From: Candidatus Dojkabacteria bacterium
GTDB taxonomy: Bacteria > Patescibacteriota > Dojkabacteria > SC72
Assembly (NCBI GenBank): GCA_040767225.1
Contig: JAXGOY010000004.1
Coordinates: 6,180 to 70,179, forward strand
DNA length: 64,000 bases
Direction of reading: 5' to 3'
The translations under genes were made by a program, and so were the position numbers. Under the pieces are notes generated by a model. It was not told where the DNA came from and ran no database searches. It was given only the letters and a program-made list of their open reading frames with translations. The first letter of the stretch is position 1. Each line of letters starts with the position of its first letter. Below, piece after piece: positions 4,185 through 47,616 of this stretch.

Positions 4185-4667
4185 ATGGTTGATATTTTAA
4201 TATATGTGTTTTTATGTATTCTAGCTATTGGTGGAATAATTCTTACACTGTTTTCATTTCCTGGTGTATGGCTTGTGTATATTGCTATAGTTATTCTTGC
4301 ATTCTATGGAGATTTTTTAATTATTACTCCAGTAATATTAATAATACTGTTTTTTCTTTCACTTCTTTCTACCTTTATTGATAATATAACTGTTGCTCTT
4401 GGTGCTAAGAGTCTTGGAGGAAGTAAATATGGAGCAATTGGGGCAGTAATTGGATTGATGCTTGGGTCTATTATGGGAGGTATTGCAGGTATGCTCATAG
4501 GTTCTTTCTTGGGAGCTTCACTTGGTGAGTATCTCTTTTCTAAAAAAGATGCTCATAATAGTTTAAAAGCTGGTCTTGGGTCATTTATTGGTATAGTTAC
4601 AAGTATTGTATTGAAGATTGGGGTGTGTATCGGTATGATTATATATATACTTACTTTAATAATTTAA
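4185..4667 (+). CDS. Small glycine-rich integral membrane protein (DUF456-like)
   Basis: 160 aa with about 4 TM helices; G-rich stretch GAKSLGGSKYGAIGAVIGLMLGSIMGGIAGMLIGSFLGASLG. Confidence 0.45.
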   Translation: MVDILIYVFLCILAIGGIILTLFSFPGVWLVYIAIVILAFYGDFLIITPVILIILFFLSLLSTFIDNITVALGAKSLGGSKYGAIGAVIGLMLGSIMGGIAGMLIGSFLGASLGEYLFSKKDAHNSLKAGLGSFIGIVTSIVLKIGVCIGMIIYILTLII

Positions 4668-18881: not shown

Positions 18882-18929
18882 TGTATTGAAAAAAGTACAT
18901 TTCACTGGTATTATTCATTGTTTATTTAT

Positions 18930-19002
18930 GGGTGTATGGCTCAATTGGTAGAGCAAACGGCTCTTAACCGTTAGGTTCAGGGTTCGAGCCCCTGTACACC
19001 CA
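18930..19002 (+). tRNA. tRNA-Lys (anticodon CTT)
   Basis: 73 nt cloverleaf folded by hand: acceptor GGGTGTA/TACACCC, D-arm GCTC-AATTGGTA-GAGC, anticodon stem AACGG/CCGTT with loop CTCTTAA (CTT), T-arm CAGGG-TTCGAGC-CCCTG, discriminator A. No encoded CCA. Confidence 0.9.
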
Positions 19003-19072
19003 TTCTTGTTTCTATTTCTCCATATGTGTTTTATAATAGATATGTATTAATATATTATGTATAAATATATAC

Positions 19073-38197: not shown

Positions 38198-38264
38198 ACT
38201 CTTAAGATTTTACAATGCTCTTTTTTTTGTATACTATATAGTATTAATATCTAAATGCATAAAA

Positions 38265-38762
38265 ATGAGTAAAAATATAAAGAGAATTCTTGGTACTGTT
38301 TCTATCTTTGTTTTATTCTTTTCTTTAGTTTCTGCAGGTAGAATATATGCTCAAACAGAAGAGTTAACAAACGAAGAAGAGTTTAACCTTGATTATGAGT
38401 ATGATCAGCCTGTTTTATATGATTATCAAGATGAGAAAGTAGTAGATACTGGCAGGAGATGTGAATGTAGATATGATAATTTAAGTGGTTCTGTTATTAC
38501 TGTTATTTTCTTTTTGTTCTTTTTTATTTTTGCTATTGTTATAGCTTCTCTTGTATTTAATATTGTTATGATAGTTGATTGTATAAATAGAGATGAGAAG
38601 GATTTTAAGGATAGGACTATATGGCTTGTTGTATTAATAGTAGGTGGTTTTACAGGTTTTGGGTTAATAGTTTCTTTAGTATATTTCTTTGCTGTTAAGA
38701 AGAAATTAGATGAGAAGGGGAAATCAGAGAAAAAAGATGTTGAGAATTCTCAAAAGAGATAA
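38265..38762 (+). CDS. Secreted/membrane protein with PLDc_N-like C-terminal domain
   Basis: Signal peptide, acidic region, then VMIVDCINRDEKDFKDRTIWLVVLIVGGFTGFGLIVSLVYFF (phospholipase-D N-terminal-type TM motif). Paralog at 62062-62637. Confidence 0.6.
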   Translation: MSKNIKRILGTVSIFVLFFSLVSAGRIYAQTEELTNEEEFNLDYEYDQPVLYDYQDEKVVDTGRRCECRYDNLSGSVITVIFFLFFFIFAIVIASLVFNIVMIVDCINRDEKDFKDRTIWLVVLIVGGFTGFGLIVSLVYFFAVKKKLDEKGKSEKKDVENSQKR

Positions 38763-38991
38763 TTTTATTTATTTTTAATTTACACTGAAAATAGTATGAA
38801 GAAGTTAAATAGTTTAAAGTTATATTATTATTAATAATAGCAGTACTTTCTATTGGTATATTTGTAGTAGGAGATACTTTAGCAGAACAGAGTAGTGGTA
38901 CTCCTGATTCTGGGAAAATTCTATATTAAAAGAAACATATGATAATTTAAATGATTTAGGGTATGGTAGTGAGGAGGGTAGTTATGGCGGT

Positions 38992-39639
38992 ATGTGGAAT
39001 AGGATAATATCTTCTGCTAATTGGGTGCCTAATGGTACAGTTTCAGAGGATACTGTAGTATCTGGTTATACCTTTTATGATGAGAGTCGTACAGAGAAGA
39101 CTGGTACCTTAGATTTTCCAAATTATGAGGCACAATCCCTGCAAGCTAAAGACTTTAGGGATCAAAATGGCTCTGATTCTTGGTCTTCTTGGAAAAAGGC
39201 AAATACAAATCCAGAGGTTTGGTACGATAGTAGGACTGGTTTATATTGGAGTGCAAGTCAAAGTTCTCAGACAAATCAGTTTACAATTTCAACATGTGAT
39301 TTCTTTACTACTACATCTAGGGGTGATTATGATGGCTCTGATCCTGATTGTGGTAATGCTATTAACACCTGTGGGACTCTCGTATTAGATGCTGATGGAG
39401 ATGGTACTGCAGATACTTCTTGGTATCTTCCGACCCAGGCAGAATTGATGCAGGCCTATCTAAATGGTATATATCTTGGTACTAGTACTGCATGGGTTAC
39501 AGGGAACAATTTTTGGTCGAGTACTGAGAATCAGGTTAATACTAGTTACGCTTGGTATACAGGTCTGTACCGTGGGTATACGTACCCTACTAATAAGACT
39601 ACTAGTTATTCAGTACGTTGTGTCCTTAGGGATTTATAA
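38992..39639 (+). CDS. DGR target protein, DUF1566 / Lcl-like C-type-lectin fold, variable C-terminus
   Basis: SWYLPTQAELMQAYLNG and C-terminal ...NNFWSSTENQVNTSYAWYTGLYRGYTYPTNKTTSYSVRCVLRDL (Fib_succ_major/DUF1566 ending). A signal peptide (MKKLNS.KVILLLIIAVLSIGIFVVG) is encoded upstream at 38796-38930 in shifted frames. Confidence 0.85.
   Translation: MWNRIISSANWVPNGTVSEDTVVSGYTFYDESRTEKTGTLDFPNYEAQSLQAKDFRDQNGSDSWSSWKKANTNPEVWYDSRTGLYWSASQSSQTNQFTISTCDFFTTTSRGDYDGSDPDCGNAINTCGTLVLDADGDGTADTSWYLPTQAELMQAYLNGIYLGTSTAWVTGNNFWSSTENQVNTSYAWYTGLYRGYTYPTNKTTSYSVRCVLRDL
39506..39627 (+). repeat. DGR variable repeat (VR)
   Basis: Aligns base for base with 39906-40027. It differs at 15 positions where TR has A, at codon positions 1/2 of TR AAY codons, plus one T/C mismatch near the 3' end (39621). 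Confidence 0.85.
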
Positions 39640-39644
39640 TATGA

Positions 39645-39673
39645 ATGGATACTGGCGTAAGTCCAGTAGCCAT
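39645..39673 (+). promoter_or_regulatory. Hairpin immediately downstream of VR (DGR homing structure candidate)
   Basis: ATGGATACTGG-cgtaagt-CCAGTAGCCAT (10/11 bp stem) starting 6 nt after the target stop. Confidence 0.4.
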
Positions 39674-39905
39674 ACCAAATTATTTTTAATTTAAAATTTG
39701 AGCTTGCAATCTGTACAGGAATATGAAAGTATGTATCCATGCAAGATCTTACACTCTCAACCTCGGCATAGGCAATGGCTTGTAAGGGAGGCATAAATAT
39801 ATAATCCTACCTGTTATACCCAAGTGGTATAGAGATACAAAAGATCTTTTACACTAAATATGTCTAGTATCAGGTCTTTGGTGGAGTTAAAAAATTAGCA
39901 GGTTT

Positions 39906-40027
39906 ACAATTTTTGGTCGAGTACTGAGAATCAGAATAATAATAGTAACGCTTGGTATACAAATCTGAACAATGGAAATACGAACAATAATAATAAGACT
40001 ACTAGTTATTCAGTACGTTGCGTCCTT
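39906..40027 (+). repeat. DGR template repeat (TR)
   Basis: A-rich at variable positions (aat aat aat agt aac ... aac aat gga aat acg aac aat aat aat). Ends directly at the avd start codon. Confidence 0.85.
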
Positions 40028-40041
40028 AGGGAGTATATAAT

Positions 40042-40398
40042 ATGCCTCAAGCAGATTTAGACAAACCAATATATCTAGCTTTATACAAACTCATTCTTTA
40101 TCTTTATACATGTATTAGAAATTTTCCTAAAGAGTACAAATACACTCTTGGTCAAGACATACTTTCTCTTGCTTGGAAAACCTTAGATTGGGTAATACTC
40201 GCTAATACGGTAGAGAATAGAGAAAAGAAGAAATATATTGCAAAAGCAGTTTCAACCTTTAATAGTTTAAAATACAGATTTCGAGTTGCTAGTGATACCA
40301 AAATTTTAAGCCACCAGAAATATGCCTATATCATTAAACAGTCCGTTGAAATAGAGAAAATGTTAAAAGGATGGTTTTCTTGGTCTAAAAGATTCTAA
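40042..40398 (+). CDS. avd: Accessory variability determinant (Avd-like four-helix-bundle protein)
   Basis: 118 aa, basic, helical. FPKEYKYTLGQDILSLAW resembles the Avd / 23S-IVS family motif FPKEEKYGLTSQIR. Immediately 3' of TR. Confidence 0.7.
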   Translation: MPQADLDKPIYLALYKLILYLYTCIRNFPKEYKYTLGQDILSLAWKTLDWVILANTVENREKKKYIAKAVSTFNSLKYRFRVASDTKILSHQKYAYIIKQSVEIEKMLKGWFSWSKRF

Positions 40399-41565
40399 AT
40401 TACCCTGTACTTCTATATACTCATTTAATTCCCCAAAATGATTGAAGTAAAGGTCTTGCCTTAGGTTATATGAATTACTCCATTTTAGATGTCCAAATGT
40501 AGAATTTATACTATTACAAATTGTTGTGATTTCTTCTTCAGTTGGAGGTGAGTGTATTTCAACTGCCTCCTCTTTACACATAGATCTATCTATTAGAAAT
40601 CCTTTGTTAAAATAGTGTAGTTTTCTTTTTAGATTATGGACTGTACGGTTTCGAGCTAGTATATAGTTTGGTCTGACTATATAGCCAATAAAATCTATGC
40701 CTTGATATACACTCCCATAGGTGGTCTTTTCTGACTTTATTTTAAGTAACAACTCTTTTTCAAGGAATTCTGTAACAGCTTTTTCAATTTCTTCTAATTC
40801 TTTTATATCTTTTGAGAGAAACAGTAGGTCATCTGCATATCTTAGATAGTATTTAATTTTTAATTCTCTTTTGACAAATTGATCTAACTCGTTTAGGTAT
40901 AAATTAGCAAAAAATTGTGATGTTAAGTTCCCAATTGGTAGTCCTTTATTTTCATCTGTGGTAAAAAGACTCTTGTTGGGAGGGAGCTTCTGTATTAGCT
41001 GTAAATCTCCTTTAGGTATATATTTTGTACAAGGATTATGAAGAATTATCTGCTTTGAGAGTTTTAATAATTCCCTTTTCTGTTCTTGGTCATATGGAAG
41101 TTTGTATATGCTGTCAGATAGGATGTCCAGTAATTTTGATTTGTCTATACTGTAGAAGAAACTACTTATATCTAATTTTAGGTAGTAAGAATTAGATTTT
41201 TTATTGTTTGTAACTTTATTTAGAAAGTATTGCAATCGTTTGACTCCACATATGACTCCATGCTCTTTTCTACAGGCAAATGAGTCGTAGATAAAGGTTT
41301 TATCGATTGGGGGTTCGATATAGCTAATTAAGAGATGATGTACAACTCTATCTATGAAGTTAGCAGCAAAGATTTCTCTAGTGGAGGGGTATGTTATGAT
41401 AAAGCATATGGAGTTACCAATCGTATAGGAATTATTCTTAAGTTCTTTTTGTAAACTTACCAAGTTATATTCAAGATGATTTTCAAATAGAAGTTGGTAT
41501 GTGCTATTCCTTTTTCCTTTTCTACATGAGTAGTATGCAGAGATAATGGATTCTAAATCAAACAT
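40363..41565 (-). CDS. DGR reverse transcriptase
   Basis: RT motifs: LKLDISSFFYSID (RT3), GLPIGNLTSQFFANLYLNELD (RT4 with DGR-type SQ in place of group II QG), YLRYADDLLFL (RT5), GIDFIGY (RT7). 400 aa, no maturase or endonuclease domain. Convergent with avd, overlapping it by 36 nt. Confidence 0.85.
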   Translation of the reverse strand: MFDLESIISAYYSCRKGKRNSTYQLLFENHLEYNLVSLQKELKNNSYTIGNSICFIITYPSTREIFAANFIDRVVHHLLISYIEPPIDKTFIYDSFACRKEHGVICGVKRLQYFLNKVTNNKKSNSYYLKLDISSFFYSIDKSKLLDILSDSIYKLPYDQEQKRELLKLSKQIILHNPCTKYIPKGDLQLIQKLPPNKSLFTTDENKGLPIGNLTSQFFANLYLNELDQFVKRELKIKYYLRYADDLLFLSKDIKELEEIEKAVTEFLEKELLLKIKSEKTTYGSVYQGIDFIGYIVRPNYILARNRTVHNLKRKLHYFNKGFLIDRSMCKEEAVEIHSPPTEEEITTICNSINSTFGHLKWSNSYNLRQDLYFNHFGELNEYIEVQGNLESFRPRKPSF

Positions 41566-41949
41566 TGTTTTGTGTATTATTCATTATGCTGTTAATCGTG
41601 GGGTATTTGGTCGAGCCTTCAATCCCACAGAGTTGGTATTTACACTATACCATTAACAACTATTGTTCCTTAGGTTAAATGAGTCTCCTTTCTTATTACA
41701 AATTTATGATGAATTGTACATTGCTACTAGATAAATTAATGTTAAAATGAATAATAGCTATGTAATATATTTCCAATATTGATATTATGTTTCTCTAAAT
41801 ATCTCTTTTAAGGCACCATCTACATACATCTTTAATTCTTTCATATCCTACTTTGTGTTCCTCAAAGGTCGGGAGTCCTTTTTCTTTTACCCATCTTTTA
41901 TTCTCATCCAATATAAAGCAAACGATAAGAATTAATTGAAATTTGATAT

Positions 41950-42310
41950 ACTAGAGATTTGAAAATAGTAGAAAACAAAATTAGCATTCAAGAATTAAAA
42001 GAGATGGCGTCTAAGATGTTTGGTAGTCTTGTTTTAGATAGAGAAGAGAGAATAGAGTTTGACTCAATGATTAATCTAAGACCATAGAACTTTTTGATTT
42101 ATCTAAAGAATCAAAATTAACATCTTCACAGTATAGAGAATTAACTAGAAGTAGGGAGATATGGGGAGATTATTTTAAATATGATAATCAATATTCATCC
42201 ACAGCTCAGTCTATGAATAACTACTTTATGTATTTAACTATTGCTTACAAAAACAGTGGGAAGGAATCCCCTATTATTTGTTTAAGAAATTCATTTGTAT
42301 GTATTTCCTA
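41950..42310 (+). pseudogene. Decayed copy of the two-gene cassette found intact at 48089-48745
   Basis: Translates to KIVENKISIQELKEMASKMFGSLVLD...REERIEFDSMINLRP* ... ELFDLSKESKLTSSQYRELTRSREIWGDYFKYDNQYSST, collinear with 48089-48430 and 48437-48745 but with internal deletions and stops. Confidence 0.6.
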
Positions 42311-42379: not shown

Positions 42380-45300
42380 ATGAAGGATACTGTCCATATA
42401 AGGATACCAATATTAATATTGTTTGTTGTTGTAATAGGCATTACATTTGTATTATTAATAACTAATGTATTTGCTTTAAATAATACATCTGTTTTAGGAA
42501 GTGCTACTGTAATAAATACACAGAATAAAATATTCTTTACGTCTCAAACATATGGTGCAAATGTAGTAATATCAGATCCTGATCCTGAGAATAATAATAA
42601 AAGAACAATATCTGGATATGCATGGTCTCAAGATATAGGATGGATAAAATTTACACAGGGAGAAACAGATGGAGTGTTTGTTGAGTATGATACAGGAAAA
42701 GTTTCAGGTTCTGCATATGTAATAAATACTGGAAATAGAATAGAGTTTAGCTCAAATAATGCTAATGTGGTAGTTAATACAGAAACAGGAAAGTTTACAG
42801 GATATGCATGGTCTAAGGATATAGGGTGGATAGATTTCGGAGTTAATAATGTGTATGTAAAAGATAGTACTCCTCCGAATAATCCTACAGAGGCAAAGGC
42901 ATATACAGACGGGAGTAGAGAAAAAGAGATACCAGTATCTGCTGATAAATTTTTTAGTTTTACATCAATACATTTGTATTGGGATAAGCCTCAAGACCCT
43001 AGTGGAGAATCTCATGGATATAGTGCAAGTGGGATATCTGGCTATTATGTATATTGGGGAGTAAGCAGTACTGCAATACCATCTTCTTCTGGCAGTTTTA
43101 TTACTGACAACTTTGTTGATGTAGATATTCCTTCTAGTGGAACATACTACTTAAATGTTCAGGCAGTTGATAATCAAGGGAATATGTATACCAACACTGA
43201 TCAGGACTATACAATATTAGAGTATAATGCTGACTTGGTTTCTCCTACTAATGTTAAGTATATAACTACACCTGGGGGTAATTTCGGAAATATTGATGAT
43301 ATGTTTTTTAGCTGGCCAAGCTCTGCTGGTGTTACAAGTGAAGATGAAAATGGTATATTAGGTTGGCAGTATAGTTTAAATGGGGTTAATAACTGGACAG
43401 GACCAGTACACGATGATTGGCTTAATCTAGATTATATCCCATACAAAGATTCTACATATATTCATTATTTTTCTAATGAGAAGGACGGGGAGAAAATAGT
43501 AGTAGGTAATAATATTATATATTTTAGAACAATAGATAAAGCAGGAAATACAAGCGGATATATTAGTGGAGGTATATCCTATGGAGGTCTTGCTCCTATA
43601 TTTGAAGAGGATGCACAGGTAATTATTACTCCTTCTGAGAATACATCGAATGAGTTTGCACTATCATGGTCTCCTGCTATTCCATTTGAAGGGAGAGTGA
43701 TTGCTTCTTACTATTATATGGTAAACTCTCCTCCTCCTGCTACATATGAGACATTAATAAGTAACTCTTCATTGTATATTCCAGTGCAGGGTACTTCTGT
43801 GTCAAAGAGAATGCTTCCTGGTGCAATTAAAGGTGAAAATATAGTATATGTTATTGCTGTTGATAATGAAAATGGATACTCTCCTAGTAATTATATTCAA
43901 GCGAAGTTTACATTAAATAGTACTTTACCTGACCCTGTAACTGATTTGAGTATAGCGGACACATCAATTAAAGATGCTAAACTGTGGAGAGCAAGTATTA
44001 CATGGAATGAGCCTGTGTATAAAGGGGATGGGAAGCTTACATATATTGTTCAGAGAAGTTTTAATGGAGTTGATTGGACAACTGTTGGAAGCACCACAGG
44101 TATTACATATTCAGATATTGTTCCTTCAAGCAGACTTTATTACTATCGGGTAGGTGTAATGGATGGAACAGATCAGAGTAAAGAGAAGCCTACTTTTTCA
44201 ATATCTCTTTCTGCAATGATAGAGGGAAGATATACACAGCCTGCGAAATTAGTTTCTGAGGTTGAAATTGTAAACTTAGGAACAAGAAAAGCAACAATAG
44301 TATGGGTAACTGAAAGAAATAGTGATACAAAAGTTGCATATGGTTTAACAAGCGGGGAGTATTTTGAAGAGGAAGCATACAACTCTAAACAGGTAACTGA
44401 GCATGAAATTACATTAAATAATCTTCAGCCAGAAACAACATACTACTTTAAGGCTAAGTGGAGTGATTCTGATGGAAATACTGGAGAAAGTCAGGAGATA
44501 TCTCTTAGAACTGCAGATTCTCCTCAGGTATACTCCAGTAAGGTTGATATGGTTGGTTTAAACTATGCAGTTATTTCTTTTGAGGTATTTGGTGCTACAA
44601 AAGCTTCCGTTATATATGGAAGGTCTTTTGCATATACTGCGCAAAAAGAGATAAATACATCACCTACAAGAAGCAAGTACTCTGTTGTTTTAGATGGTTT
44701 AGATGATGGGGTGCAATATAGTTATAAGATAAGGCTGACAGATGCTGATGGATACATATATGATTCTATTGAAAACAATACATTTACTACACCCCCTAAA
44801 CCTAAGATATCAAATGTAAGAGTACAGGAGATACGAGATGTTGCAAGTCCTACCGTAGTATTTAGCTGGGATACTAATACACATACCAATTCTATTGTAA
44901 GATACAGAGAAGATGTTGAAGGATCAAGGGAAATTGATAAAGTGGATATGAAGATGGTAAAGGGAGAACATAAAATGGAGATATCTGGTTTAGTACCAAC
45001 AACCAACTATATAGCATATGTTGAAGGAGTTGATGATTATGGGAATAAGGCTGTATCTGAAACAGTAAGATTTACTACTCAAACTGATACTAGACCTCCA
45101 AAGATATTTAATGTTAAAGTTGAACAGGATCTTTTGGGTAGGTCAATTCAAACAGATAGAAGCAGGAGTGCTCAATTGATAGTAAGCTGGGAAACTGATG
45201 AGCCTGCTACAAGCAAGGTAAACTTTGGTGAGGGCGGTGCAGGTGTATATACATCTAGTTCTAGAATGGATCAGGAACAAAGAACAGATCATTTGGTTAT

Positions 45301-45469
45301 AGTCTCAGGCTTAACTCCATCTAAGGTGTATAGTTTAGAAATTGAATCTGGTGATGATTCAGGCAATATCAGTAAATATGGTCCTCTTGTTTCAATTACT
45401 CAAAAATCATCTAATACTGTTTTAGAAACAATATTGAACTCTATCTCTAATATATTTAACATATTCTAA
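42380..45469 (+). CDS. Very large secreted/anchored protein with multiple fibronectin-III-like domains
   Basis: 1029 aa; N-terminal TM/signal IPILILFVVVIGITFVLLI; several FN3-like units (YYYRVGVMDGTDQS, TTYYFKAKWSDSDGNTGES). Confidence 0.75.
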   Translation: MKDTVHIRIPILILFVVVIGITFVLLITNVFALNNTSVLGSATVINTQNKIFFTSQTYGANVVISDPDPENNNKRTISGYAWSQDIGWIKFTQGETDGVFVEYDTGKVSGSAYVINTGNRIEFSSNNANVVVNTETGKFTGYAWSKDIGWIDFGVNNVYVKDSTPPNNPTEAKAYTDGSREKEIPVSADKFFSFTSIHLYWDKPQDPSGESHGYSASGISGYYVYWGVSSTAIPSSSGSFITDNFVDVDIPSSGTYYLNVQAVDNQGNMYTNTDQDYTILEYNADLVSPTNVKYITTPGGNFGNIDDMFFSWPSSAGVTSEDENGILGWQYSLNGVNNWTGPVHDDWLNLDYIPYKDSTYIHYFSNEKDGEKIVVGNNIIYFRTIDKAGNTSGYISGGISYGGLAPIFEEDAQVIITPSENTSNEFALSWSPAIPFEGRVIASYYYMVNSPPPATYETLISNSSLYIPVQGTSVSKRMLPGAIKGENIVYVIAVDNENGYSPSNYIQAKFTLNSTLPDPVTDLSIADTSIKDAKLWRASITWNEPVYKGDGKLTYIVQRSFNGVDWTTVGSTTGITYSDIVPSSRLYYYRVGVMDGTDQSKEKPTFSISLSAMIEGRYTQPAKLVSEVEIVNLGTRKATIVWVTERNSDTKVAYGLTSGEYFEEEAYNSKQVTEHEITLNNLQPETTYYFKAKWSDSDGNTGESQEISLRTADSPQVYSSKVDMVGLNYAVISFEVFGATKASVIYGRSFAYTAQKEINTSPTRSKYSVVLDGLDDGVQYSYKIRLTDADGYIYDSIENNTFTTPPKPKISNVRVQEIRDVASPTVVFSWDTNTHTNSIVRYREDVEGSREIDKVDMKMVKGEHKMEISGLVPTTNYIAYVEGVDDYGNKAVSETVRFTTQTDTRPPKIFNVKVEQDLLGRSIQTDRSRSAQLIVSWETDEPATSKVNFGEGGAGVYTSSSRMDQEQRTDHLVIVSGLTPSKVYSLEIESGDDSGNISKYGPLVSITQKSSNTVLETILNSISNIFNIF

Positions 45470-47616
45470 TGACTCAAAGAAAAGTAATTGAAGTTAAAGG
45501 GATAAATAAAAGTTTCTCACTGGGAAAAAGAGAAAACAAAGTATTAAAAGATGTATCACTTGATATTTACTCTGGCCAGTTAACCTGTATCTTTGGCCCT
45601 TCTGGATGTGGTAAATCCACACTACTAAATGTAGTAATGGGACTTGAACGACCTGATAGTGGTAATGTTAGAGTTTTGAGTGAGAATATCTGGGATATTG
45701 ATATTAATGAACAGACAGATTTTAGAAAAAGGCATATTGGAGTAGTATATCAGCAACAGATTTGGATTAGGTCTTTAAGTGTAATTGAAAATGTTGCTCT
45801 TCCTGCACAGCTACTGGGAATGAACAAAAGTGATGCATTAAATCGTGCAGAGAAGGTCTTACAAGATGTGGGGATGTTAAAATTTAGAGATTTCTACACA
45901 TCTGAGCTTTCATCTGGTGAGCAGCAAAAAGTTGGTTTGGCTAGAGCATTAATTACTGACCCTGAAATAGTTATCGCTGACGAGCCTACTGGTAATCTTG
46001 ATACTAAGAATGGGTATGAAGTATTAAAGATATTGAAAAACCTAGCAGGGAGGGGAGTAACAGTTGTTTTGGTTACACATAATCCTGAGTATTTAGAATA
46101 CTGTGATACTGTTGTAGTAATGAAAGATGGCTCGGTAATGGATGCACTGAAGGGGGGGAAGGAAATTTTAAGTAAGGTACAGGAAAGTTTAAATAGGAAA
46201 GATATAAAAGTGAACAATAATACAACTGAAAATAAGATTAGTAGTGAAAGTAGTGTAGATTCTGAGTATTATCCAAAGGAATCATTCTTTGAGAAGTTGG
46301 GAGGATATACTAAATTAATAGTTAGCTTTTTTACTAAGTCATTATCATTATTTGTATTATCTCTTGTAAGAAAAATTAATATTAATGGAGCTGCACAGTT
46401 AAGAAGGAGTATGACAAAATCTAATAATGGAGATATGTCATTGCTTGATTTAACAGAGCTGTCTTTTAAGAATGTCTTTTTTAAGAGGTTTAGAACTTTA
46501 ATTACAATACTTGGTGTTGGCTTAGGAGTAGGTTTTGTTGTACTACTTGTTTCAATAGGGTATGGGTTAGAGGATTTAGTAATTGAGGAGGTTACTAAAG
46601 CTCAAAACCTTAATCAAGTTGATGTTTTCCCTAAAGTAGGTAGTCAATTAAAATTAGATGATGAATTAATTAAGAAAGTTTCTGCAATATCAGGTATTAG
46701 TAAAATATATAGAATAAAGAATTTTCCTGGGAGAATTGATTACAAAGGATCTACTGTTGATGTCGTTGTGTATGGAGTAGAGAGTGGATATCTTGAGAAT
46801 TCTCCCGTTAAAAAGGTTACTGGAGAGTTCTTAAATGGGGAGTCAGACAAATTCTCTGCTATAATTAACTCTGAATATTTAAAGACACTTGGACTAGGTA
46901 CAGACATTATTGGGGAGACCCTAAATTTAAATGTTATACAATCTGTACCTGAAAGTGAATCAGAGCCTAAAAACATTCCTGTAACAATCGCAGGAGTTGT
47001 TGAAGATGATTCTCCTCCTGTTATATATCTTAAAATAGATTCTGTGAGGGAGTATACAGAGGATGAGTATTCTGCACTTTCGATTATAATTAATAAGGAA
47101 TCATCCCTTGATTTTGTCAGAAAACAGATAGAGTCTTTGGGGCTTGAGACATTTTCAATAATGGATACTGTTAATCAGGTTCAACAGATATTTACATATG
47201 TAAGATATGGTCTTTTGGCATTTGGTATTCTAGCATTTGCAATAGCTTTTCTTGGAATGATTAATACATTAACTGTATCACTGCTTGAAAGAACAAGGGA
47301 GGTTGGTTTAATGAAGATTATAGGGATGAAGAAGAATGATATACAGTTTCTTTTCATTACTGAATCCATGTTTATTGGTCTGTTAGGAGGAATTTTTGGA
47401 ATACTGTTTGGAATACTTGGAGGATATCTAGTATCACTTGCTGTGTATCTTTTGTCTTCATCTCGTGGAGTTGAGTTTATGGTAATTACTTCTTTCCCAT
47501 TTGTTACTGCACTGATTGTGATATTAGTAACAACTCTCCTATCATTCTTTACTGGGTTGTATCCTGCAAATAGAGCTGTTAAAATTCCTACTATGGATGC
47601 TGTAAGATATGAGTAA
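45469..47616 (+). CDS. MacB-type ABC transporter, fused ATPase + FtsX permease
   Basis: Walker [13 protein letters not shown], signature [16 protein letters not shown]-terminal four-TM FtsX-like domain. Start overlaps the upstream stop (TAATG). Confidence 0.85.

Follow-up and report, generated by a model that had tools for sequence, protein, structure and literature searches.

Diversity-generating retroelements (DGRs) are, to our knowledge, the only prokaryotic system of targeted protein hypermutation, and bacteria of the candidate phyla radiation (CPR) are among their richest carriers. DGRs of the CPR type were reportedly described by Paul et al. in 2017, and we know of no CPR DGR that has been studied biochemically. 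The present analysis concerns a locus in the assembly of a Candidatus Dojkabacteria bacterium (GenBank GCA_040767225.1, contig JAXGOY010000004.1, positions 6,180 to 70,179), where a stretch of 64,000 nucleotides, hereafter the window, carries a target gene ending in a variable repeat (VR), a template repeat (TR), a gene for an accessory variability determinant (avd) and a reverse transcriptase (RT); positions below are those of the window. The locus is best explained, with high confidence, as a DGR in the chromosome of a bacterium of the Dojkabacteria (WS6, candidate phyla radiation), acting on the tip of a surface protein with a lectin fold. Because DGRs in CPR bacteria are well documented it is classed as a known kind of element, and as a DGR alone it is an ordinary member of its class and of modest interest. 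The part worth following is a structured RNA leader directly 5' of TR, together with a long-range duplex at the TR end. A first-pass annotation of this DNA had called a DGR here, and each of its core claims held when tested; two details had to be corrected, namely the description of the element as complete and the interpretation of site 39621/40021.

The prototype, the DGR of Bordetella phage BPP-1 (mtd-avd-TR-brt), shares with this locus the adenine-specific transfer from TR to VR into the C-terminal tip of a lectin fold, an RT with the I/LGxxxSQ motif alongside Avd, and pairing of the TR flanks that joins the TR ends (Handa et al., bioRxiv 10.1101/2023.10.23.563531). In the phage element, upstream and downstream RNA form template:primer and stop duplexes that serve cis-priming and termination (Handa et al., bioRxiv 10.1101/2023.10.23.563531). 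The two elements differ in setting (chromosomal here, phage-borne in BPP-1), in target (Lcl_C/DUF1566 here, Mtd there) and in order, which here is target-leader-TR-avd with a convergent RT on the other strand. They also differ in the placement of the structured accessory RNA, which in BPP-1 is a 140-nt spacer (Sp) 3' of TR and here is about 165 nt with four helices 5' of TR, no conserved structure having been found here 3' of TR past a 16-nt duplex strand.

Further parallels come from the CPR itself. A cellular DGR clade is restricted to Patescibacteria (clade 2, Roux et al. 2021, PMC8144416), and in a CPR set of 126 members avd and RT lie mostly on opposite strands (Wu et al. 2018, PMC5758913); the same survey notes that TR and RT may be on different strands and lists DUF1566-type targets as a class. 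The present locus agrees with CPR-type elements in its patescibacterial host, cellular location, single adjacent target, Avd, and TR and RT on different strands. The usual CPR layout is TR-(avd)-RT (B3; Wu et al., PMC5758913), whereas here it is TR-avd-(RT) with a convergent overlap of 36 nt, and in relatives whose RTs are 47–49% identical the order is RT-avd and then (TR)(leader)(target). With the Legionella pneumophila DGR and the DUF1566-Lcl targets generally (category 'd', CLec2, Wu et al., PMC5758913) the locus shares a VR that overlaps a lectin fold of the DUF1566/Lcl_C type; the Legionella target is a lipoprotein in a proteobacterial integrative element, whereas the intact relatives of the present target are 281-aa proteins with an N-terminal membrane anchor. 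Structured RNAs beside DGR templates have been described as motifs RT-1 to RT-19, RT-10 being the one found in BPP-1 between TR and brt (Weinberg et al. 2017, PMC5737381). They resemble the present leader in adjoining the template and in the priming role proposed for them (Weinberg et al., PMC5737381); unlike them, the leader lies on the other side of TR and has no Rfam match even at E<=5.

Adenine-specific transfer from template repeat to variable repeat

VR and TR align without gaps over 127 nt each at an offset of 400 nt, with 87% identity. The offset is as first annotated, but the repeats run 5 nt past the ends given then (39506-39627 and 39906-40027), to 39632 and 40032, and a length of 138 bp, also quoted, is reached only when one indel is allowed, in which case the similarity extends to 39643/40044. 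The adenine-specific pattern that had been claimed for the pair was borne out. Fifteen of the 16 mismatches have A in TR and G, C or T in VR (Fisher p=1.5e-6, with 49 adenines among the 127 nt of TR), and, again as claimed, nearly all of these (14/15) fall at codon positions 1 or 2 of AAT or AAC in the frame of the open reading frame (ORF) that ends at 39639, the other being a silent third-position change in GGA (GGA to GGG). In this way nine of the 14 AAY codons of TR are recoded in a VR that stays in frame and holds no stop codon. A pattern made from TR with N at every adenine matches just TR and VR in the 64-kb window (chance expectation 0), and a second pattern, 29 nt taken from the constant 3' portion, finds the same two places only; the window therefore contains one TR and one VR, and neither scan found a second target or a remote VR in it.

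Comparison among strains and lineages shows that information flows from TR to VR and that randomisation is confined to adenines. For this purpose VR heterogeneity was judged from independent assemblies in place of reads, and VR variants were recovered through protein clusters and a leader motif. One such case is a sister element (RT 86% identical): when contigs from two samples are compared across RT, avd, TR, spacer and target, 2,900 nt show no difference except at 18 sites; all 18 lie in VR at TR adenines, and TR itself is identical. In the protein cluster around the target (90% identity, 16 members), P0121, P0242, P0244, P0248, P0250 and P0254 equal the window's product outside VR and differ from it and from one another only in VR codons. 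Among six strain-level DNA copies, whose TRs are at most 3 nt apart, 32 of the 127 repeat columns differ, and 29 of these combine an A in all TRs with variation among the VRs. Seven further lineages place every VR/TR mismatch within the repeat at a TR adenine (12/12, 13/13, 14/14, 17/17, 21/21, 12/12 and 18/18).

Bases other than adenine also pass from template to target. At 39588/39988 TR and VR covary, with T in both repeats in the window and C in both elsewhere, so that a non-A base is copied faithfully from TR to VR. At 40002 the TR of the window has C where all other strain-level TRs have A, a change of AAT to ACT that removes one diversifiable position, and the window's VR carries the bases matching its own TR at both 40002 and 39988 (VR 39602 and 39588). 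Variable VRs, an invariant TR and the transfer of such non-A markers together show activity in nature, and the check on VR heterogeneity named beforehand in the annotation is positive as seen in independent assemblies. In many samples the contigs break off within TR or VR, which is what a repeat with copies that differ across a population would be expected to cause. An exact search of JGI metagenome contigs with the whole-TR pattern (A to N) returned no matches; related TRs differ at 2–3 non-A sites.

The one mismatch outside the adenines, at 39621/40021, had been taken as a difference between initiation of mutagenic homology elements (IMH/IMH*), an idea that proved only loosely right. Both C and T occur at this site in both repeats among the strain-level copies, with all four combinations present, so the site is polymorphic and not a fixed IMH/IMH* difference; in sister lineages the two repeats carry the same base there. 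The most 3' adenine seen mutated among the six strain-level copies is 39615/40015, which places 39621/40021 just past the proven mutagenised tract. Its behaviour is consistent with a site that coincides with the 3' crossover point or lies past it, and crossover may occur before or after it. In the sister lineages VR and TR remain identical up to the end of ...CGTCCTTAGGGA, and the match ends exactly after ...AGGGA in all lineages compared.

Some individual copies depart from this arrangement. In L033 (JGI Ga0208824_1001533) VR has an in-frame internal deletion of 51 nt relative to its own TR. The VRs of P0251 and P0252 equal the unmutated TR translation; P0251 runs on into sequence downstream of TR (…REYIICLKQI) and is for that reason read as an assembly chimera joining target to TR.

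A structured leader and a long-range duplex around the template repeat

The 266-nt spacer between VR and TR contains a strongly conserved block beginning at about 39741, which is kept at RT identities of only 50–66%. Aligned across 15 lineages, this block forms four helices (P1 to P4, Table 1) with 96% of cells paired, and compensatory double changes affect 17 of the 38 pairs, as against 6.0±1.7 in shuffled alignments (0/500) and 2–5 with slid partners. The structure is visible only by comparing lineages: folded as a single sequence, the 266-nt spacer does no better than its shuffles (z=-0.9). A two-pair helix proposed by RNAalifold (39741-2/39791-2) was dropped, as it never varies and competes with the long-range duplex that covariation supports. 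Within 39400-41800 no Rfam family, the RT motifs included, matches the leader at the gathering threshold or at E<=5.

A covariance model built from the leader alignment detects the leader in two lineages outside its training set, L043 (E=1.7e-18) and L044 (6e-16), and in the 13 sources searched it matched only beside TRs. In these two lineages, at 47–49% RT identity, RT and avd point the same way, and the other strand carries target, leader and TR; even so, the leader lies immediately 5' of TR, no more than 22 nt away. That it abuts TR despite the different gene order ties the leader to TR and not to avd. As a separate matter, the TR of L043 (4571-4698, minus strand) ends right at the stop codon of avd (4200-4568, plus strand) and had been annotated by the gene caller as an 82-aa ORF, 'Lcl_C (weak)'.

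The leader also contains, between P1 and P2, one strand of a duplex whose partner begins in the last nucleotides of TR (Table 1). RNAduplex gives -19 to -23 kcal/mol for this pairing in ten lineages, 90% of cells are paired, and compensatory changes affect 7 of 18 pairs against 3.0±1.2 in shuffles (0/500). Examples are GGCAUAAAGUUU with AAACUUUAUGCC in L042 and AGCCCAAGCAU with AUGCUUUGGGCU in L044, and in every lineage the partner is anchored on the last TR nucleotides. P2 ends 2 nt before TR begins and the leader strand pairs with the TR 3' end; both ends of TR would thereby meet at one junction. Pairing of the upstream and downstream TR flanks, the cPRT-stop type of duplex of Handa et al., is therefore a feature that covariation supports here. 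No counterpart of Sp as a conserved structure was found 3' of TR, in the 5' coding region of avd, where the consensus fold reaches -1.25 kcal/mol with one covarying pair.

No published description of a 5' leader RNA was found. A survey of DGR RNA conservation took 40 nt 5' and 100 nt 3' of TR and used single-sequence folding (Handa et al., bioRxiv 10.1101/2023.10.23.563531); because the upstream duplex strand lies 99–118 nt 5' of TR, a span reaching just 40 nt in that direction would miss it.

It might be supposed that the leader stands outside the retroelement machinery, as a regulator in the 5' untranslated region of avd or as an unrelated small RNA. In the window avd does follow it in the same orientation, and the ribosome-binding site and ATG of avd fall within the duplex, which could reflect plain translational control. 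However, in L043 and L044 avd is on the other strand, downstream of RT, and the leader has stayed with TR; the duplex partner sits on the last TR nucleotides in every lineage; and the model finds the leader nowhere but beside TRs. A role apart from the retroelement is on this evidence improbable, and we favor a leader that belongs to the template RNA.

On that reading, a dedicated promoter close to 39704-39732 would drive a plus-strand RNA comprising the leader, TR and avd, and the leader-TR(-avd) RNA would be the template RNA. The layout upstream of the leader is promoter-like (-35, 17–18 nt, TGn, NANNAT, then 6–8 nt) and, as read by eye, is equally spaced from the leader in L004, L013, L022 and L024. 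As its family membership would predict, the RT with Avd would copy TR into cDNA and misincorporate opposite template adenines; the cDNA would then replace VR at the 3' end of the target, recoding up to 14 AAY codons for about 15^14 peptide variants. The diversified residues would lie on the ligand-binding face of a C-type-lectin-fold domain, which in intact relatives would be hung from an N-terminal membrane anchor. The leader may do here what the 3' spacer does in the Bordetella phage element, namely serve in protein binding and positioning, and the duplex resembles the avd:Sp and TR:Sp duplexes of that element's RNA. Where it pairs with the 3' end of TR the leader strand has the polarity of a primer, so that cis-priming could start from the leader, and, in the gene order of the window, a duplex lying over the ribosome-binding site and ATG of avd may couple Avd translation to RNA folding.

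These elements can be combined into a fuller proposal, which we offer tentatively and at rather less than even confidence: a clade of CPR DGRs would have an RNA permuted with respect to that of Bordetella, in which P1 to P4, together with the strand that anneals to the 3' end of TR, would precede TR, cis-priming would start from a leader nucleotide near 39807-39808 and not from a downstream spacer, a duplex hiding the avd start would couple Avd synthesis to folding, and the leader would constitute an undescribed RNA family specific to CPR DGRs. The leader and duplex provide a concrete model for the organisation of template RNA in a DGR without a downstream spacer. This model bears on the generality of the cis-priming mechanism of Bordetella phage, and it is relevant to the engineering of compact DGRs.

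The lectin-fold target and its disrupted 5' end

The target had been assigned a C-terminal domain of the Lcl/DUF1566 C-type-lectin fold, and several lines of evidence agree. Its translation contains WYLPTQAEL...SYSVRCV; Pfam Lcl_C matches above its cut-off (E=1.6e-11); an AlphaFold (AF2) model built with 75 homologues has a pLDDT of 93.8; and Foldseek places the model nearest to the C-terminal domain of Legionella Lcl (8q4e_A, E=1.2e-4), followed by dozens of C-type lectin-like domains. The 215-aa product is identical to P0246, a member of the NCBI protein cluster that is encoded on a 72-kb contig; an exact-sequence look-up of the 215-aa protein returned no record.

The element is nevertheless not complete as it had been described, since the target is truncated in this assembly by two 1-nt frameshifts. 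Intact relatives have 280–282 aa and start with MKKLNSLEIILLLIIAVLSIGIFV..., an N-terminal membrane anchor. Translation of this part of the window in all three frames, aligned with these homologues, shows that two 1-nt deletions split the ATG at 38798, the anchor and the remainder of the gene into three frames. The element had been taken to start at 38796; the ORF that carries VR starts at 38992, and the ATG at 38798 belongs to another frame. Having lost the 5' end that encodes the anchor, the target may be a crippled gene that the element is diversifying, or else the frameshifts are assembly errors.

It is possible on these grounds that the DGR here is decaying or inactive, the target a pseudogene and the VR/TR differences a record of past activity. 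The start codon and membrane anchor are out of frame, one VR/TR mismatch is not at an adenine, and Wu et al. (PMC5758913) caution that many genomic DGRs are inactivated. However, RT, avd, leader and TR are intact and 97–100% identical to copies that have intact targets, VR is open and in frame, and the 215-aa ORF keeps an ATG and the whole lectin domain. The frameshifts, moreover, lie in the most divergent stretch of the comparison: 38200-38917 is indel-rich and 85–88% identical to strains for which the figure between 38918 and VR is 100%, and for that reason the frameshifts could equally be consensus errors of a metagenome-assembled genome. An inactive element seems unlikely overall, and a DGR whose parts other than the target 5' end are intact is preferred.

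Six nucleotides after the target stop codon an inverted repeat (Table 1) would form a hairpin (DNA fold z=-3.75) that is kept in close lineages and whose stem is perfect in L004. It may serve in target recognition or as a terminator; a scan for intrinsic terminators after the target found none, and there is no terminator-like T run. GC-rich inverted repeats after VR occur in just 34% of DGRs (Wu et al. 2018, PMC5758913).

Reverse transcriptase, Avd and genomic setting

Matches in PDB, Pfam, NCBIfam and PHROG, none of them a dedicated DGR-RT profile, place the RT in the DGR class. Its translation has the motifs IGNLTSQ and YADD. Among solved structures its best match is a 328-aa chain named 'Reverse transcriptase', 8ub7_A, with eight sibling entries (E=2.3e-36), in which IGSLTSQLFANVY aligns to IGNLTSQFFANLY of the window RT (IGSLTSQ against IGNLTSQ); group II, retron and Cas-fused RTs follow at E=1e-9 or weaker, group II being next best. 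The PHROG family 'Reverse transcriptase' matches at E=1.8e-95, and GenBank phage relatives, five Bordetella phage records among them, are 34–41% identical. In NCBIfam no group II, retron or defence RT model comes near its cut-off: group_II_RT_mat (TIGR04416) gives 93.8 bits against 300 and covers the RT domain alone, and retron St85 (NF038233) gives 72 bits against 235. The first-pass statement that this is a DGR-type RT and not one of group II or a retron was upheld by the IGNLTSQ motif, the ranking among solved structures and these sub-threshold scores.

That the RT belongs to a group II intron, retron or defence system and the repeat is an ordinary duplication has in its favor that group_II_RT_mat and retron St85 are the top NCBIfam scores and that some public records label relatives 'retron-type reverse transcriptase', but this explanation is refuted by those same scores against their cut-offs, by a lead of 27 orders of magnitude for the DGR-type RT over group II RTs in PDB, by a motif that reads IGNLTSQ and not QG, by the lack of any Rfam group II intron or retron RNA family in the window, and by the adenine specificity of the mismatches, and we regard its likelihood as negligible.

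The 118-aa gene had been suggested to be avd, and this is confirmed by Pfam bAvd (E=4.8e-17, 62.8 bits against a cut-off of 40) and by PHROG 'Avd protein of DGR' (E=1.2e-22). Sequence searches of solved structures with Avd and with the target gave nothing useful. RT and avd converge, their 3' ends overlapping by 36 nt (40363-40398); an overlap of 36–39 nt is kept in relatives down to 59% RT identity.

Several observations weigh against the account given here, of a chromosomal DGR with its template RNA led by the 5' leader. One mismatch, T in VR at 39621 and C in TR at 40021, does not involve a TR adenine, and the target ORF lacks its first 66 codons, the membrane anchor included. VR heterogeneity comes from separate assemblies and not from reads of this one population. 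The NCBIfam equivalog DivGenRetAVD scores 66.9 bits with the Avd protein, under its cut-off of 80 bits, and the chain of 8ub7-8ube is only putatively the Bordetella phage bRT, for which we take it from its length and its motif. The -10 hexamer of the putative promoter is weak (3/6 consensus matches), and a consensus scan did not list this promoter; both it and the priming role of the leader are things that we infer. The hairpin after VR is not kept in more distant lineages, being absent at the equivalent place in L022 and L024.

Table 1. Features of the DGR locus, in window coordinates
Feature	Position	Strand	Remarks
Disrupted 5' part of target gene	38798..38991	+	start codon, signal-anchor helix, linker; two 1-nt deletions near 38819 and 38910
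Target ORF as present, 215 aa	38992..39639	+	Lcl_C / DUF1566 C-type-lectin-fold domain
Variable repeat (VR)	39506..39632	+	last 42 codons of target; strain-level copies differ only here
Inverted repeat 6 nt after target stop	39645..39673	+	ATGGATACTGG / CCAGTAGCCAT, 11 bp, one mismatch
Putative promoter of leader-TR transcript	39704..39732	+	TTGCAA, 17-nt spacer ending TGa, AAGTAT
Structured RNA leader directly 5' of TR	39741..39903	+	~165 nt; covariation
Leader helix P1	39747-39763/39770-39787	+	alignment and RNAalifold
Duplex 5' strand	39788..39807	+	GAGGCATAAATATATAATCC; between P1 and P2
Leader helix P2	39809-39816/39896-39903	+	alignment and RNAalifold
Leader helix P3	39817-39821/39825-39829	+	alignment and RNAalifold
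Leader helix P4	39840-39852/39867-39879	+	alignment and RNAalifold
Template repeat (TR)	39906..40032	+	49 adenines, 14 AAY codons; invariant between assemblies with differing VRs
Duplex 3' strand	40030..40048	+	last 3 nt of TR and 16 nt including avd ribosome-binding site, ATG 40042
avd, accessory variability determinant, 118 aa	40042..40398	+	Pfam bAvd, PHROG Avd
DGR reverse transcriptase, 400 aa	40363..41565	-	Pfam RVT_1; PDB and PHROG matches

Public relatives of the RT number in the hundreds (RT identity 45–99%), and RT and target relatives carry the names Dojkabacteria, WS6, Saccharibacteria, Microgenomates and Patescibacteria, in agreement with the CPR-like host that had been proposed. 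The genes flanking the cassette encode a ClpC-like ATPase, Hsp20, a small membrane protein, a 1029-aa fn3-repeat protein and an ABC/MacB-FtsX transporter. No close viral relative of the RT was found, the nearest RT in IMG/VR being 28% identical; given this distance and the ordinary cellular genes around it, the cassette is a chromosomal CPR DGR. A phage origin was rejected, the closest viral RTs being those at 28% in IMG/VR and at 34–41% among GenBank phages.

The fn3-repeat protein (~1029 aa) and the ABC/MacB-FtsX transporter (715–723 aa; 42380-47616 in the window) always adjoin the cassette, which sits upstream of the pair in some lineages and downstream in others (L013, L020, L022 and L045 as against L006, L017 and L024). 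The diversified lectin may be linked in function to these two proteins. Between strains the cassette (38918-42000) is 97–100% identical and its flanks (38200-38917 and 43000-47000) 85–95%, with a sharp boundary near 38918; this step suggests that the cassette has recently spread by recombination or undergone a sweep, unless the assembly is mosaic. Rfam matches over the window comprise only a tRNA and two small-RNA hits at chance level, and the tRNA-Lys (CTT) at 18929-19003 is the sole RNA gene detected there.

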